Below, piece after piece: positions 57,528-63,641 of a DNA stretch of 64,000 nucleotides. The notes beneath the pieces were generated by a model. It did not search any database. It had not been told where the DNA came from and was given only the letters and a program-made list of their open reading frames with translations. Source of the DNA: Longimicrobiales bacterium. GTDB taxonomy: Bacteria; Gemmatimonadota; Gemmatimonadetes; Longimicrobiales; Gaopeijiaceae. The translations under genes were made by a program, and so were the position numbers. The stretch lies in contig OZ220732.1 of NCBI GenBank assembly GCA_965116905.1, forward strand, positions 576,001-640,000. The letters run 5' to 3'. Position 1 is the first letter of the stretch, and the number at the start of each line of letters is the position of its first letter.

Positions 57528-57636
57528 GGCGGGCGCGGGGTAAGCGGACCGGCGTCGAGTCGGCGAGAACGGGCGGACGGACGGGGCCGAGTGGGCGGGC
57601 GGCGTCGAGTGGGCAGACCGGGGGCGCCCATACGAG

Positions 57637-57673
57637 CATGCCGGTGTCCCTGGATTTGCCGCGGAAACGTGGG
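57637..57673. repeat. Left inverted repeat
   Basis: catgccggtgtccctggatttgccgcggaaacgtggg; weaker similarity extends outward to ~57616. Confidence 0.93.
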
Positions 57674-58086
57674 GGGGGCGATCCGAGGCAGCCGCCACCT
57701 CGGTGCCCCGCCAGCCGCATGCCGGACTGAGGCAACATCCGTTAGCCCACTGGCCCATCTCCGCAGCCCATCGCCCGGACCGATCCCGGGATCGCGCTTT
57801 CCGGCCACCCCGCTGTCCCAAACCGCCGAAACACAGGCCGATCCTGCTATAGACGGGTTTTGAAATGGCGGTTTCGGCGAGGTCCGGGACCGCGTCGTCA
57901 ATGCCGCCCAGGAGCCGCAGGTGGCCCGCTGGCGGGTGATCGGGCATCGGCGACCCTTCCACGTCATCCCGACCCGAGATCGTGCGTTCTGCGGCCGTAC
58001 GGAAGGCCGAAAATCCATGGTTAAATTTCAGGTGCGACAGTCTCACCACACATAAGCCGTTGCCGGACTTGAACCTGGAGGATCAC

Positions 58087-58599
58087 ATGAACACCACGCA
58101 ACTCGGAGAGCGGATCGCCGAACTCGCCGCCCGGATCAACATCGCCACCCACGAGATGCTCACCCTCGTCGCCGAGTTCGACCGCCGCGATGGGTGGGCC
58201 GACGCCTTCGACTCCTGCGCCGAGTGGCTCGCCTGGCGGACCGGGCGCACGGTCGCCACCTGCCGCGAGAACGTGCGCGTCGCGCATGCGCTCGAGGACC
58301 TGCCCGCCACCTCGGCCGAGATGAAGGCCGGACGGCTCTCCTACGCCAAGGCGCGGGCCATCACCCGGGTGGCCACACCACAGACCGAGGCGGAACTGCT
58401 CGACTACGCCCACAAGGGCTCGGCCGCGGCGGTGGAGCGCATGGTGTGGGGGGTGCGGCACCGTGGGAAATGTCCCATAGTCCGCCGCTGTCCGATGTCG
58501 TCCGAGCCAGTACGTGGGCAGCTGGACGCCACCGCCAGCGGCACTGAAAACACCTCCCCAACGTCTTGGGCACGGTTTCGTCGGAGCTCGGCTTCGTAG
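58087..58599 (+). pseudogene. DUF222 (13E12-repeat-like) HNH endonuclease, N-terminal fragment
   Basis: GGAGGA RBS; LGERIAELAARI...EFDRRDGW...SCAEWLAWRTG...ENVRVAHAL..LP...GRLSYAKARAITRVATP; similarity ends near 58463. Confidence 0.85.
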
Positions 58600-58833
58600 G
58601 CCAGCCCGAACCACCGCCGCCAGCCACCGCGTGAAGTACCGAGCCTTGTCGGCGAAAGCTTGACGCTCGTCGAATACGCGCGATCGTGCGCAGGGTGCTG
58701 TCCTAATTGAGCATCTCCATCTCGAACGCATTGCCCGGGATGACGCAAATGCGGTGGGCGGAGATAGCCCTTGGCCGCACTCAGTTCTTCCCCTTCTTGG
58801 CCCCTCAGGCCACCATTCGAAGATTCATGGTCC

Positions 58834-59451
58834 TCAGCGGTCCAGGTGGTAGTTCACGGCGGTGACGAAGGTTCTTGCGACGCCGATGCCATCATGCTCT
58901 GATCGGAACAGGTCCCATTCTCTCAGGTTGATGCCGTACCGCAACTCCATCGTCACGCTGACGCGCTCGGTTGCTTGGATGGCGAGTCCAGCCCCGGCGA
59001 CAAAGCGTGCATCTTCCTCGGTCCCGTAGCACTCTCCCTCTGTTCCGCGGGTCAGGTTCTTCGCTCGACACCTGACCGGTATACCCCAGGTCGGACCGAA
59101 CATAAGCTGCAGGTCGAGTCCGTCTTGCCGCGCGACGCTTGCCTCTGCGATGACCGAGAAGTCGATGTGGTCTATCTGGTCACGGAACCTGTCGCCGCAG
59201 GGACCGGGACAATCGTAGTTTTCACGCCACAGCCAATAGCTTCCCTGCTTGTACGCAGCACCGAACCGAAAGCCGAAACGTTCGCTGACAGGAGCGTAGG
59301 CGGTAGCACCGACAGTCATCAGTGTCACTGGATGATCGCGGTAGTTGTCTTCGGGCCAAGTCGGCCCGCCCTGGACTCCGATTTCGGAGATTCCCGGTGG
59401 GAAGATGTACAGCAACACCCCCGAGACCATCAGCAATGCGAGGTTGTCCAT
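58834..59451 (-). CDS. Outer-membrane beta-barrel-like protein
   Basis: GGAGG RBS; hydrophobic N-terminus; amphipathic strands (FRFGAAYKQG, LMFGPTWG, FVAGAGLAI, MELRYG); terminal strand FVTAVNYHL. Confidence 0.65.
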   Translation of the reverse strand: MDNLALLMVSGVLLYIFPPGISEIGVQGGPTWPEDNYRDHPVTLMTVGATAYAPVSERFGFRFGAAYKQGSYWLWRENYDCPGPCGDRFRDQIDHIDFSVIAEASVARQDGLDLQLMFGPTWGIPVRCRAKNLTRGTEGECYGTEEDARFVAGAGLAIQATERVSVTMELRYGINLREWDLFRSEHDGIGVARTFVTAVNYHLDR

Positions 59452-59535
59452 AAGTCCCCCTCCTGTTCCAGAAGAACCGGCGGCCACCGGGCCAAGTCCG
59501 CATCCCGGTGGCCCCCCGCTCCTGACCTAATGTCC

Positions 59536-61260
59536 TTAGTACCCCACGTTCTGGATCCAAGTTCGTCGAATGTCGTCTGCGTCCCAATCGGACGGCTCGG
59601 AGGCGCCCTCGGTCGCGTTGTCCGGTGCACCGATGCCGGGAAAGTTCGAGTTGTGCACGATCTCGCTGACCCGGTTTTCGAGGCACCACACGAAATCCGA
59701 CACGTCGTTGCGTTTTGAGCCATCGACACGGCAAGTCCGGAGGACCTCGGATACATAGTGTGCTGGGTAGTTCGTTCGATCGTCTCCCTCGTCCGCCGAG
59801 TCGATCAGATCCGTGAACAGCGCGGCAACGTGGCCCTCGATCTTGCCCGGAATGCCGTTAGTATTCCGGAGTTTCTCCCATTGTCCCGGCTGCTGCCGGC
59901 CGATCGAGCCGGCGTAGCTTGCGAACCCCTCCTTGAACGCGCACTCGTACGATGTCGCTTTCCACACGCCGCCGCGGTCCTTGCCGCATCTCGAGGCACT
60001 CCATGTTCCGCCGAGCGACTTGTTGTGCAATGCGTGACCGTACTCGTGTCCGGCTACCTGCTGGCTCCAATAGCCTCCCTTATAGAAGGTGATTTTATCC
60101 CCGGTCCGTGAGTACGACCCGCCGCCGGAAGCGGACGAGTACTTGTAGTCCACGGCCGACCGCGACTGGTCGAAGTGGTCGTCGATGCGCGGTATCGACT
60201 GGCCCAGGTGGCGCCACGGCAGATACCACTTGTCGCTGATGACAAACAAGGACGTAGAACCGCAGTCGTCCTGGTCCACCTGGGTGCTTCCGATGGAGTG
60301 ATTCGCGTTGACTTCCGTGGTCGTGGGAACCGACCCGGCGACGTTCATGTACTCGGCATCCTCGTCCTCGGGACACGGGAACGTGATCAATCCGCTTTCG
60401 CCCACCTCCCTGATGATGATGTCCCCGGACCAGTCGCCGGGGTCGAGGTACATCGCCTGGACGTACGCTCCCGATGCGGCGTGGAAGCTGCCACCACTGT
60501 AGTAGCCGACCCTAACGCCGATGGAGTCGGACCCGCCATTGGCGCCCGCAGCGCTCGCGGTCATGTCGGCGCCGGTTGCGGTCCGGCTCTCGTACCTGGT
60601 GCGGAACGGGCCGGGTTGCGGGACGAGGTTGTCATCGAAAACCGACTCGTCGAATTCGTTGGTGACGCGGCCGCCTCCGTCCATCACAAGCAGCCATGCC
60701 TCGCCGTAGCCATCGTCGAATACATAGGGATCCCACTTGTCGTCAGGTCCCTGCGCATCGACATCTACAGCCACATGGTAGTAGCCCTTGTCGGGCAACT
60801 TGACGGCGACGGACCTCTTCCAGGTGCCGCCCTCGTCGAGGGCGGGTACCTCCCATTTTGCCACCACGGGCAGTTCCTTGCCAATCGGATAGTTCGGCCG
60901 ATTGCCCTCCCCGGCGTGATCCATCGCCGCCATCGTCGGCAATCGCATCCGCACTTCGCCGCCCGTCAGCTTCTCGGTGGCAACACCCTCGATCCAGATC
61001 GTGACCGTCTGGTGCGGCTCCAAGTCGCCTTCGACCTCCAGTGTGACTGCGAAACGTGATCGGAAGTTGTCGACCGATCCGCCGTCGTCAGCGGCGTGGG
61101 CAGCCGCAAGGCCGAGCTCATCGCCCCCGACATCCGGCTGCTCGACAGCGATGGGATCGTCGTCACAGGCTCCCACCAGGAGTACACCGCCAACGGACAG
61201 CACGACCTTCCAGAACCCGATAGTCCCGTTGAGGTTTCTGATCTCTTTTGGCCTGTTCAT
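59536..61260 (-). CDS. Lipoprotein with a gluzincin-type zinc metallopeptidase motif
   Basis: AGGAGG RBS; lipobox VGAC; VAGHEYGHALH followed by AFKEGFASY. Confidence 0.8.
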   Translation of the reverse strand: MNRPKEIRNLNGTIGFWKVVLSVGGVLLVGACDDDPIAVEQPDVGGDELGLAAAHAADDGGSVDNFRSRFAVTLEVEGDLEPHQTVTIWIEGVATEKLTGGEVRMRLPTMAAMDHAGEGNRPNYPIGKELPVVAKWEVPALDEGGTWKRSVAVKLPDKGYYHVAVDVDAQGPDDKWDPYVFDDGYGEAWLLVMDGGGRVTNEFDESVFDDNLVPQPGPFRTRYESRTATGADMTASAAGANGGSDSIGVRVGYYSGGSFHAASGAYVQAMYLDPGDWSGDIIIREVGESGLITFPCPEDEDAEYMNVAGSVPTTTEVNANHSIGSTQVDQDDCGSTSLFVISDKWYLPWRHLGQSIPRIDDHFDQSRSAVDYKYSSASGGGSYSRTGDKITFYKGGYWSQQVAGHEYGHALHNKSLGGTWSASRCGKDRGGVWKATSYECAFKEGFASYAGSIGRQQPGQWEKLRNTNGIPGKIEGHVAALFTDLIDSADEGDDRTNYPAHYVSEVLRTCRVDGSKRNDVSDFVWCLENRVSEIVHNSNFPGIGAPDNATEGASEPSDWDADDIRRTWIQNVGY

Positions 61261-61412
61261 GGCACCCTCCTGGGTATGGGTCCTACCGACCGCCCGGATC
61301 AGATGTCGAGTGAAATCCCGGTAGGGCCAAAGTTGGTCGCCGTGTGTTGGAGCACGTGTAGGCTCCCCAAACTCACTACTCCAGTATTGGCAACGGATTC
61401 CAGCGCTCATAG

Positions 61413-61469
61413 AGGGAAAACCCGGTAGTTCGTAGGGGAAAACCCGGTAGTTCGTAGGGGAAACTCCGG
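61413..61469. repeat. 22-bp tandem repeat (~2.5 copies) upstream of the metallopeptidase gene
   Basis: Rgggaaaacccggtagttcgta x2, then ggggaaactccgg. Confidence 0.9.
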
Positions 61470-61796
61470 CCAAGCCACGAAAGCGTTGAGCGTGAAGGCG
61501 GGGGACTGGAGGCTCTGTCCCGAAGCTGGGCAGGGAGCGAGAACCGGTTGGTTGTCAACACGTCTCCATCGAACCGAAGTAGGCGCGATGATCGGAAGAG
61601 AAGCGCGGAGGCGACCCTCGGGAGCGGGTAGGCAAACGCGACCGGAGGTGGCGCCGGGATTCCCGCCAATCAAGTCCGGCTTTCCCGCTGTCGCAGCACT
61701 GTCCAGCAGGGTCCAGCCCGATGGCAACAGTGACAGATCGTGCAGTTCTGATTGAACTTACGTGATCTCTTGCCGTGATTCAGGCCTTGGGTGCTC

Positions 61797-62198
61797 CGCC
61801 TGGCCAACACGGTGCTGCTCTGCCGGCGGCACCACCGGCTCGCGCACGAGGGCAGGGTCCGGATGGCGCTCGACCGGCGCGACCGGGCGGTGTTCTTCGC
61901 GCGCAGCGGGGCGGCGGTCGCAAGCGCGCCCCCGCTGCCGGAGCCGACGCTGCCTCTGCCGTCCCCGCCCCCGCTTGGGCCCGGCGAGATGTACAACGGT
62001 GCGGCACGGCTCCTGGACTCGGCGATCCCATGGGAGATCGAGGCCGCGGCACGGGAGGCGGTGGAGGCGGCACCGGAGGCGGGCGAGGTGGGCAAGCAGG
62101 CCGGCGAGCCTTGCAAGGCGGTGGAGCAGGTCGGCAGGGCCGACCGCAGAACCGACCGCAGACGCCAAGACACCCCGCCACCCGCCCAGGCCGCCTGA
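61797..62198 (+). pseudogene. DUF222-HNH endonuclease, C-terminal fragment
   Basis: RLANTVLLCRRHHRLAHEG is the distal half of an HNH motif; the proximal half is missing; the stop lies 2 nt before the right inverted repeat. Confidence 0.8.
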
Positions 62199-62200
62199 GT

Positions 62201-62237
62201 CCCACGTTTCCACGGCAAATCCAGGGACACCGGCATG
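62201..62237. repeat. Right inverted repeat
   Basis: cccacgtttccacggcaaatccagggacaccggcatg; weaker similarity extends to ~62257. Confidence 0.93.
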
Positions 62238-62399
62238 TCGGGATGGGACACCAGGTCACAATTCAGAAGGAGCAGGAGCCGGGGACAACCGCCTCGACGA
62301 TGAACCCTTCGCCCCCGACCGGCACCCGGCGTACCTTGCAAGCAACCAGACGGCCGTGACCGGCTGTCGAAAGAGAGGATCAAAACGCCGAGGCTCACA

Positions 62400-63641
62400 A
62401 TGACGAACGTGACAATAACGCGACGGCATTTCACCCCGCCGCCCCTCGCCCTCGCTCTCGCGCTCCTGGTGGCCTGCAGCGACGCCGGGAACGAATCCGA
62501 CACCGGCGCTGTCGGAACCCTGGACGGCCCGGACGTGATCGTGAACGCCGTGACCGAGGAGGTCTTCGCCGTCGGCTCGGCCATGGCCACCGACTGGCAG
62601 GCTTTCGGCAACGTCCGCTCGGTCCACTTCGACGCGCAGGCCAACCTGCACATCTTCGACAGCAACGCCGATCACATCGTGGTGGTCGGGCCCGACGGGT
62701 CGCTGATCCGTACGGTCGGCGGGCCGGGCGAGGGACCCGGAGAGTTCGGCAACGTCACCACGGCGATCGTTGCGCCCGACGGCTCCTATACGGTGATGGG
62801 GTTTACGCGGATCGACCTTTTTGAACCCGACGGCGACTTCGTGCGCAGCATCACCATGGACCCGTTTACGACGGGAATGGTCATGGCCACCATGGCGCTT
62901 CCTGATGGCCGCCTGTTGACCGGCCAGATAATGCGCTTCGGCAGTGACGAGGAGGCTGACGAAGTGGGTCGCCCGATCCACATCTTTCCACTCGACGGCA
63001 CCGAAACGGAACTTCTCTACACTGCCTGGGAGTTGCCCGAGGAGGGCGGGGACGAAAGCACAGCCGAGTCGACGTCGGGTGGCACGCTCTTCCGCTTCGC
63101 GGCGGGCCGCGCCTTCGAGCCCCGCCTTCAATACGACCTTCTGACCGATGGCCGCCTCGCGCTGATCGATTCGATCGGTTACCGCGTCAAGCTCATCGGA
63201 CTCGACGGAAGCGTCACCGGAACCATCGAGCGGCCGATCGCGCCGCTGCCGGTCGACGATGCAGTCATGGAAGCCGAGCGCGCACGCTACAGTGAACGCG
63301 AGGCATCGGAGGTGGTGACCTCAAGCGGCGTCAACGTGCAGATCGAGCGGGAGGGCGTGGAGGGGCGTACCTTCGCCGACGAGTTGCCGGTGTTGTATGA
63401 CCTGGAGGTCGACTGGGAGGACCGAATCTGGCTGGAACGCTGGGGACCGACGGGCGACGACGACGGTCCGACCGACATCGTGACGCCCAACGGGGACTAC
63501 ATCGGCACCCTGCCACCGGACGGACTCAGGACACCGGACGCCTTCGGCCCCGGCGGACTCCTGGCCTATATCGAGACCGACGAAATGGACGTGCCGACCG
63601 TGCGCGTGCTCAGACTGGTTGCGCTGGAGCCGGAGGGGTAG
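62400..63641 (+). CDS. 6-bladed beta-propeller (NHL-like) lipoprotein
   Basis: Lipobox LVAC; VGGPGEGPGEF; VDWEDRIW; ETDEMDVPTV. Confidence 0.85.
   Translation: MTNVTITRRHFTPPPLALALALLVACSDAGNESDTGAVGTLDGPDVIVNAVTEEVFAVGSAMATDWQAFGNVRSVHFDAQANLHIFDSNADHIVVVGPDGSLIRTVGGPGEGPGEFGNVTTAIVAPDGSYTVMGFTRIDLFEPDGDFVRSITMDPFTTGMVMATMALPDGRLLTGQIMRFGSDEEADEVGRPIHIFPLDGTETELLYTAWELPEEGGDESTAESTSGGTLFRFAAGRAFEPRLQYDLLTDGRLALIDSIGYRVKLIGLDGSVTGTIERPIAPLPVDDAVMEAERARYSEREASEVVTSSGVNVQIEREGVEGRTFADELPVLYDLEVDWEDRIWLERWGPTGDDDGPTDIVTPNGDYIGTLPPDGLRTPDAFGPGGLLAYIETDEMDVPTVRVLRLVALEPEG

Follow-up and report, generated by a model that had tools for sequence, protein, structure and literature searches.

The 64,000-nucleotide stretch analysed here (the window) covers bases 576001-640000 of a single 4.21-Mb contig (OZ220732.1, assembly GCA_965116905.1) of a Longimicrobiales bacterium, and carries near its right end a broken copy of a gene joining a DUF222 domain to an HNH nuclease domain, lying between inverted repeats and interrupted by an insert of 3337 nt. 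The repeats (57637-57673 and 62201-62237) are identical at 36/37 nt, confirming what a sequence-only reading of this DNA had noted, and form the longest inverted repeat of the window with at most one mismatch, compared with 18-24 nt in ten Markov-simulated windows. That reading had also seen weaker similarity out to about 57616 and 62257; extended to 57616/62258 the match amounts to 45/58 ungapped positions, of which the CCCAT block alone is real, and the conserved limits of the copy fall at ~57625 and 62249. Between these limits the two gene pieces stand in the order first described, with the middle of the gene missing and the stop codon (62196-62198) 2 nt before the right repeat, and alignment to intact paralogs ends the homology after 58462 and moves its restart from 61797 to 61800. 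The nuclease gene is short by 647 nt relative to two paralogs and by 665 relative to the third. PF02720 (DUF222) matches residues 11-118 of the open reading frame (ORF) starting at 58087, and the distal piece retains the HNH residues N344, C349, H352 and H353, having lost C316/C321 and H329/H330. The HNH-less fragment 58087-58599 forms an open frame of 170 aa that includes the entire predicted DNA-binding domain (pN/pS, the ratio of nonsynonymous to synonymous differences, 0.14-0.35 against the paralogs), and its product might be a repressor of intact copies. As in the earlier reading, no target-site duplication was found around the window copy.

Features of the broken copy, from the amidase stop codon to the right end (window positions)
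Positions	Strand	Feature	Basis
57528..57624	.	G-rich low-complexity filler, amidase stop to left end	sequence
57625..57673	+	left end: 45-bp motif 57625-57669 and repeat 57637-57673	two TGTCCC-type boxes, imperfect palindromic core
57674..58086	+	non-coding leader, ~410 nt; conserved block ~57810-58086	comparison; no Rfam match
58087..58462	+	DUF222 codons 1-125, predicted ParB/Noc-type DNA-binding domain	frame runs into insert to 58599
58463..58833	.	island remnant: spacer like the mobC side of sister islands, then decayed stretch	DNA match
58834..59451	-	island cargo: 205-aa ORF, no known family	ORF; homolog in relative G062 without DUF222 ends
59536..61260	-	island cargo: 574-aa lipoprotein-like ORF, putative zinc metalloprotease	lipobox-like start, HEYGH
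61414..61457	.	22-bp exact tandem repeat upstream of cargo genes	similar stretches in other islands of the genome
61653..61799	+	integrase-distal end of tyrosine-recombinase island family, abutting the gene just before codon L342	13 copies in genome
61800..62198	+	distal half of HNH motif and low-complexity tail	homology to paralogs
62201..62249	-	right end: 45-bp motif 62205-62249 and repeat 62201-62237, facing inward	motif match

Three further copies in this genome have the same ends around intact ORFs (E1, 319354-321101; E2, 1011079-1013056; E3, 4178639-4180574; genome coordinates), and an intact paralog matches both PF02720 and PF01844 above cut-off. The 45-bp end motif occurs eight times in the genome (at most 8 mismatches), as four pairs around DUF222 genes, three of them intact. 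Across 56 loci of the genus it faces inward in all copies, upstream (55/55) and downstream (47/47), often two or three per side, with 17 loci lacking it on a given side. A stricter form of the motif was found in 18/36 other genomes of the genus and in 0/24 genomes of other families; DUF222 matches, present in 40/52 relatives, number 0-20 per genome. The earlier proposal of a DUF222-HNH unit with defined ends is thus upheld, and a search of the genome and its relatives with the repeat finds pairs bracketing DUF222-HNH genes. Profiles identify DUF222 and HNH alone in the unit, with no transposase family match; its middle domain has no assignment and might harbour a new catalytic fold. The gene, with a pN/pS of 0.13-0.40 in eight pairs of intact copies, looks to be under purifying selection. 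In other genomes some copies are two-ended internal deletions (790-860 bp) and others are interrupted by IS110 or islands; G001 has one and the same IS110-family gene in the leader of two different copies (L194, L224), one of which also has an island end and a second IS110.

The genome also encodes a second DUF222-HNH family (genome 1144370-1145907 and 3587612-3589208), ~43% identical to the first. Its boundaries are formed by another palindrome, AT-rich and 25 bp long, which occurs solo at about a dozen places as well. Within the codons for their VSAET motif, genes of this second family, which are without the end motif, contain a perfect 14-bp palindrome; the same spot is recoded in 36/39 end-bearing genes, and a palindrome is kept in 5/10 genes without ends. 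Two of the solo 25-bp palindrome sites are fused to this 14-bp palindrome.

The insert differs in composition (61.6% GC) from the gene pieces (71.5% and 76.2%) and from the genome (67.7%). The opposite-strand cargo of ~3.3 kb first reported stands as two minus-strand ORFs; neither product has a Pfam or NCBIfam match, and 'protease' is therefore a motif-level label and 'beta-barrel' a putative one. A 38% paralog of the 574-aa protein sits in an integrase island of the window genome, and the nearest ESM Atlas cluster of a cargo protein is mostly Gemmatimonadota. Close relatives occur in runs labelled sponge metagenome, and the host probably belongs to this phylum and lives with sponges. The left cargo edge resembles the mobC-to-cargo spacer of two sister islands, and ~58578-58663 gives a 75% DNA match (89 nt) to the 3' end of hsdR, the type I restriction gene of a sister island, the protein match being weak (E 0.17). 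At the other edge, the final 150 nt have 12 further matches in the genome. Several of these are the far end of islands with PF00589 integrase and MobC/relaxase genes, and one lies within an IS110 gene, where a 7-bp direct repeat is present. The insert retains the integrase-distal island end alone, and its left junction falls within the island. Its cargo is single-copy in the window genome, with homologs in 13/52 relatives; among the 11 of 24 other cargo-homolog loci examined, none lies near the end motif or a DUF222 gene and 2/11 lie near an island end. A match at L144 was dropped, a palindrome separating the island end from the gene. The cargo gene pair recurs at ~95% identity with different neighbours in run X9; RNA run X6 gives no cargo coverage, which fits an intact allele or silent cargo alike. 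On these sequence comparisons the insert is very probably the remnant of an integrating island.

The 13-copy family of small tyrosine-integrase islands (L053-L059, L192) carries MobC/MbeD-like genes, with lipoproteins, TonB-type receptors and restriction genes as cargo, and among its targets are tRNA-Val and tRNA-Pro, an IS110 gene, DUF222 genes and a 21-bp palindrome. Elsewhere in the genome, 17 tRNA genes stand within 2 kb (1296478-1298432).

Island ends within DUF222 genes can be identified in six cases, from five genomes and at four positions, in a set of 45 island ends weighted by the choice of loci. Three of the six junctions fall at the window's exact nucleotide and three elsewhere; those of the window genome (G000) and G043 may be one inherited event. 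A single fixed DUF222 target site for islands was rejected, given the three differing junctions and the fact that the closest island in G062, although at the same 9 bases, occupies an unrelated gene. In G065, a complete 10.9-kb island with int and mobC sits in a DUF222 gene at codon 154 (L192), flanked by an 11-bp direct repeat, with both gene halves and both ends retained, and a second DUF222 copy (L193) has its core swapped for island-like DNA. Judged from its sequence, L192 is an intermediate, a whole island inside a DUF222 element. At the window's own site, G062 carries an intact element with the full HNH motif and G048 an element with a stop codon, elements and flanks alike being 86-93% similar to the window, and the left end is present in G043 and G013. 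The sequence-only reading had proposed to look for empty sites; no element is seen at this site in 8/9 genomes of one comparison and in G065. Since G062 holds an intact ortholog at the same site, the composite was formed in place; the island likely entered a resident element, and a later deletion likely followed. The gene next to the copy (62400-63641) encodes a 413-aa lipoprotein with a weak beta-propeller match, from a family that has expanded in the genus to several paralogs per genome.

An AlphaFold2 model of E3 residues 1-392 (mean predicted local distance difference test score, pLDDT, 88.8) returned nothing from Foldseek at E 0.001. VIA-align places residues 13-126 on the DNA-binding domains of Noc, Spo0J and ParB (the top 11 rows; Z 8.7-11.3; root-mean-square deviation 2.2-2.8; 94-103 residues) and residues 297-372 on HNH nucleases (IscB, Z 6.7). 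From the model, the protein is thus predicted to be a fusion of a ParB/Noc-type DNA-binding domain with an HNH nuclease. Folded alone, the middle domain (127-301) has no Foldseek match, the best hit among 48,161 chains being a helical hairpin (Z 5.9); such poor matches do not establish a new fold. A sequence search for solved relatives gave nothing better than E 0.05, and an ESM Atlas search with residues 1-300, DUF222/HNH clusters excluded, returned unnamed clusters alone. A scan for sigma-70 promoters and terminators stayed at chance level.

Whether the unit spreads can be judged from its sites. E1 is occupied in 4/30 genomes and E2 in 4/20, and at E3 4/5 relatives show the unit in some form (complete, as both ends, deleted or as a remnant). 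At E2, ~37 bp of the empty allele are swapped for the unit plus ~35 and ~200 bp of new flank; a G065/G014 pair provides a near-precise empty site, with 8 bp replaced beside a 21-bp palindrome, across which lies a further short insert carrying an extra end. Among 33 two-ended copies there is no sign of a target-site duplication (repeats abutting the copies average 2.33 nt, and 2.36 nt when flanks are mismatched), and short tandem repeats occur in the left flank of 14/39 copies and the right flank of 13/39, as against 6/80 control windows. Neighbouring genes are often lost, such as a vapC-like gene at E1 and an amidohydrolase at the window site (labels by sequence likeness). Copies within the window genome are 95.7-99.7% alike, compared with 89-91% for copies at orthologous sites in G062 and G048, and a 40-row tree built from codons 1-125 clusters the copies by genome, not by site, with the window's broken copy as outgroup to the three intact paralogs. 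This concerted evolution means that high identity is no sign of recent jumps, and within-genome identity was rejected as proof of recent jumping. One premature TAG is common to all three examined copies of G048 (L101, L102, L042); a null allele has thus spread through the family there. A candidate G014-specific site (L197) had no usable ortholog and was set aside. Together these traits give the unit the look of a selfish element that moves slowly, and it probably does spread to new sites.

The surroundings of two intact copies hold other features. Toxin-antitoxin-like and defence-like cassettes vary among species at the E1 site (L108-L136), where the window genome retains a partial antitoxin-like gene. 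At L141 (genome 1010990-1011070), E2 lies immediately upstream of an imuB-like gene (DNA polymerase IV-like) and beside a direct repeat that is conserved across the genus and that we take to resemble an SOS box.

The 21-bp palindrome is a candidate target. It lies within 800 nt of 26/48 end-bearing (family 1) genes, loci that are in many cases orthologous and hence dependent, compared with 0/19 second-family DUF222 genes and 26/2930 predicted genes of the window genome at the same distance. It is common in 31/36 genomes of the genus and nearly absent outside it; because it is present in empty sites and in genomes free of the end motif, it belongs to the host. The window copy is without one, and its orthologs in G062, G048, G043 and G013 have one; at 57528..57624 relatives carry an amidohydrolase gene, often with the P palindrome, both missing from the window genome. 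One palindrome copy stands directly upstream of a MerR+TipAS gene, between hexamers that by eye are -35-like and -10-like, and MerR operators lie between these hexamers (PMC4486848). New sites of the unit likely show a bias to this palindrome, which resembles a MerR/TipA operator. The palindrome also occurs at L222:1390-1420 and at 18 other places in the genome, some inside ORFs.

We propose, with a probability of about 0.6, that the window copy is a resident 2-kb DUF222-HNH unit that was broken by an invading integrase island and then by deletion, and that the intact unit spreads by nick-and-repair. The island would have inserted into the HNH codons of the resident unit, and a deletion would then have taken out the integrase and mobilisation genes of the island along with ~650 nt of the nuclease gene, so that island cargo was left between the ends. 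In an intact unit, the predicted ParB/Noc-type N-terminal domain would bind the end motif at its palindromic core, and the HNH domain would nick or cut near the bound ends; host recombination would repair the break with another copy as template, frequently homogenising existing copies and rarely writing the unit into a new break. Such repair could yield the variable filler, the tandem end duplications and the deletions of neighbouring DNA. That the unit nicks DNA through binding to its own ends is a tentative part of this proposal, with somewhat less than an even chance. A bolder version, which we consider doubtful, is that DUF222-HNH units constitute a mobile class without a transposase, in which the ParB fold docks on end arrays, HNH nicks, and repair copies the unit beside protein-bound operators, here palindromes of the MerR/TipA type, without target duplication; the same cutting would drive concerted evolution, and end-bounded island cargo could ride in trans.

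Several observations weigh against the proposal. The ParB-type match concerns a helical domain, with Z below 13 and a Foldseek E of 0.05 or worse, and the end core agrees with parS at 8/16 and with the Noc-binding site (NBS) at 9/16 positions (consensus from PMC7383237). All four sites of the window genome are common to other species, as are 11 of the 13 G014 sites tested (from 20 DUF222 matches) to its sister species G065; with sites so old and shared, movement must be rare. Unpaired end motifs are present in other genomes. The unit's intergenic sites are hot spots where relatives carry other swappable genes, and a host process may therefore be moving the unit; passive RecA-type gene conversion alone could account for the homogenisation. 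Islands also insert at the 21-bp palindrome, so the site bias may not stem from the nuclease. Finally, we infer the order of insertion and deletion, because the left junction is without an island end, as we infer binding, cutting and movement of the unit.

The main rival, which we regard as unlikely, takes these points further: the unit would not be self-mobile, its ends would be operators of an autoregulated nuclease (for stress or addiction), and it would have arrived passively, through recombination of the host or of islands, at gene-end hot spots and undergone ordinary gene conversion. The age and inheritance of the sites, the turnover of adjoining DNA with unrelated cassettes and the solo palindromes of the second DUF222 family agree with this, as does the gene conversion of REP13E12 reported in Mycobacterium tuberculosis (PMC13061034). 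An operator, however, has no need of an inward-facing motif downstream of the stop codon, yet that orientation holds at 47/47; the window genome has no solo end motif, and copy numbers run from 0 in some genomes to 16-20 in others. It is distinctly improbable that the unit is like an insertion sequence (IS), whose protein moves end-bounded DNA and of which the window copy would be a non-autonomous derivative that carried or can carry cargo, as the sequence-only reading had concluded. Terminal inverted repeats, near-perfect on both sides, and the lack of a recognisable transposase were rightly seen, three intact copies could supply the protein, and relatives hold two-ended internal deletions and a second core-replaced copy; cargo capture nevertheless finds no support, given the intact G062 ortholog, the single-copy cargo that ends in another element's terminus and occurs elsewhere without the ends (0/11 loci near them), and the complete island in G065. 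An IS-like label calls for caution, there being no target duplication, most sites being older than the species and the identity between copies reflecting homogenisation.

Two further explanations fare worse. In one, the 410-nt leader is an RNA that guides or templates an element like OMEGA/HEARO. This would fit the long conserved leader and the presence of IscB among the closest HNH structures, and contigs of one sponge RNA library span leader and gene, where DNA carry-over is possible. It is made very improbable by a leader with no Rfam match and a weak consensus fold (-14 kcal/mol; two-sided change in 2/35 pairs among 21 leaders, sense strand folded), by an IscB profile score of 18.2 bits against a cut-off of 175, and by the failure to find RuvC or reverse transcriptase. 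Still remoter is the prospect that a misassembly or rearrangement brought together pieces of two different gene copies, which the earlier reading had named as its own refutation. Repeats and islands favour such errors, and relatives' contigs often break in these elements; both junctions are nevertheless crossed by contigs of two runs from two studies (labelled sponge metagenome and containing close relatives), with 5-8 differences from the window at cargo positions, and cargo depth is close to flank depth (74 against 63-91 in run X1). The short-side overlap of the four crossings is 20-36 letters, one of the four reaching the 31-letter bar for bridging. Misassembly is unlikely because contigs of two studies span both junctions at single-copy depth, and the gene order amidase - element - 62400 gene - ygfZ is also the same in G062 and G048.

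Among known systems, the unit most directly recalls REP13E12 of M. tuberculosis, with DUF222 PF02720 and HNH PF01844 in one protein, dispersed copies, gene conversion and a role as landing site. In published accounts, REP13E12 undergoes frequent conversion, is a putative prophage attachment site and has an undefined function (PMC13061034), adjoins the prophage phiRv1 (PMC1931498), and forms recombination hot spots, with DNA-damage (LexA) induction in M. tuberculosis (PMC13157036). The unit described here differs by its 45-bp inward-facing end motif, its conserved leader and its occurrence in another phylum (Gemmatimonadota). The invader differs too, a tyrosine-integrase island at several positions as opposed to phiRv1 at REP13E12; phiRv1 reportedly uses a serine integrase. 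A literature search that left subscription papers and supplements outside its reach found no description of the ends or the spreading mechanism of DUF222-HNH/13E12 units. The unit shares the tested features of the REP13E12/DUF222-HNH family.

Like IS elements and their non-autonomous derivatives (cargo-carrying or similar to miniature inverted-repeat transposable elements), the unit has one gene between inverted ends and two-ended internal deletions; unlike them, it shows no transposase family match, no target duplication, ragged filler junctions, tandem extra ends and slow turnover of sites. Compared with a non-autonomous cargo transposon, the window copy has kept both ends and lost its own gene, and no move of the whole unit was seen. 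The source of its cargo resembles the low-specificity tyrosine-integrase integrative mobilisable elements (PMC5704250), with integrase, MobC/relaxase, short direct repeats and many targets; the insert itself falls below a cis-mobilisable element (CIME), which keeps both att sites, because it has one island end and no mobility gene. ParB-parS and Noc-NBS (PMC7383237) share with the unit a predicted helical domain of the same fold and, tentatively, a similar 16-bp core layout, in the ends or, in the second subfamily, within the gene. In contrast with ParB/Noc, the ParB N-terminal domain was not detected, the domain is fused to an HNH nuclease, and the end core is an imperfect palindrome. Free-standing HNH homing endonucleases combine an HNH active site with precise filling of one cognate site; the unit is like them in an HNH site under purifying selection and a proposed cut-and-repair spread, and differs in its many non-allelic sites, inverted ends and imprecise junctions. 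The covarying RNA and IscB score of OMEGA/HEARO elements were not found in the unit.

The DUF222-HNH (13E12) family is very large (25,047 representatives at E 0.001 or better), and a 2026 preprint still gives its function as undefined. Tests can draw, within this genus, on intact proteins, on the sharply defined 45-bp end motif, on mini-derivatives that arose naturally, on empty sites matched to occupied ones and on a palindrome as candidate target. For genome scans there is a caution, as the near-identical copies here are old and homogenised and the cargo between the ends comes from another element. Taken alone, the window copy is a decay product of modest importance; the intact copies give a testable model of spread for the family.

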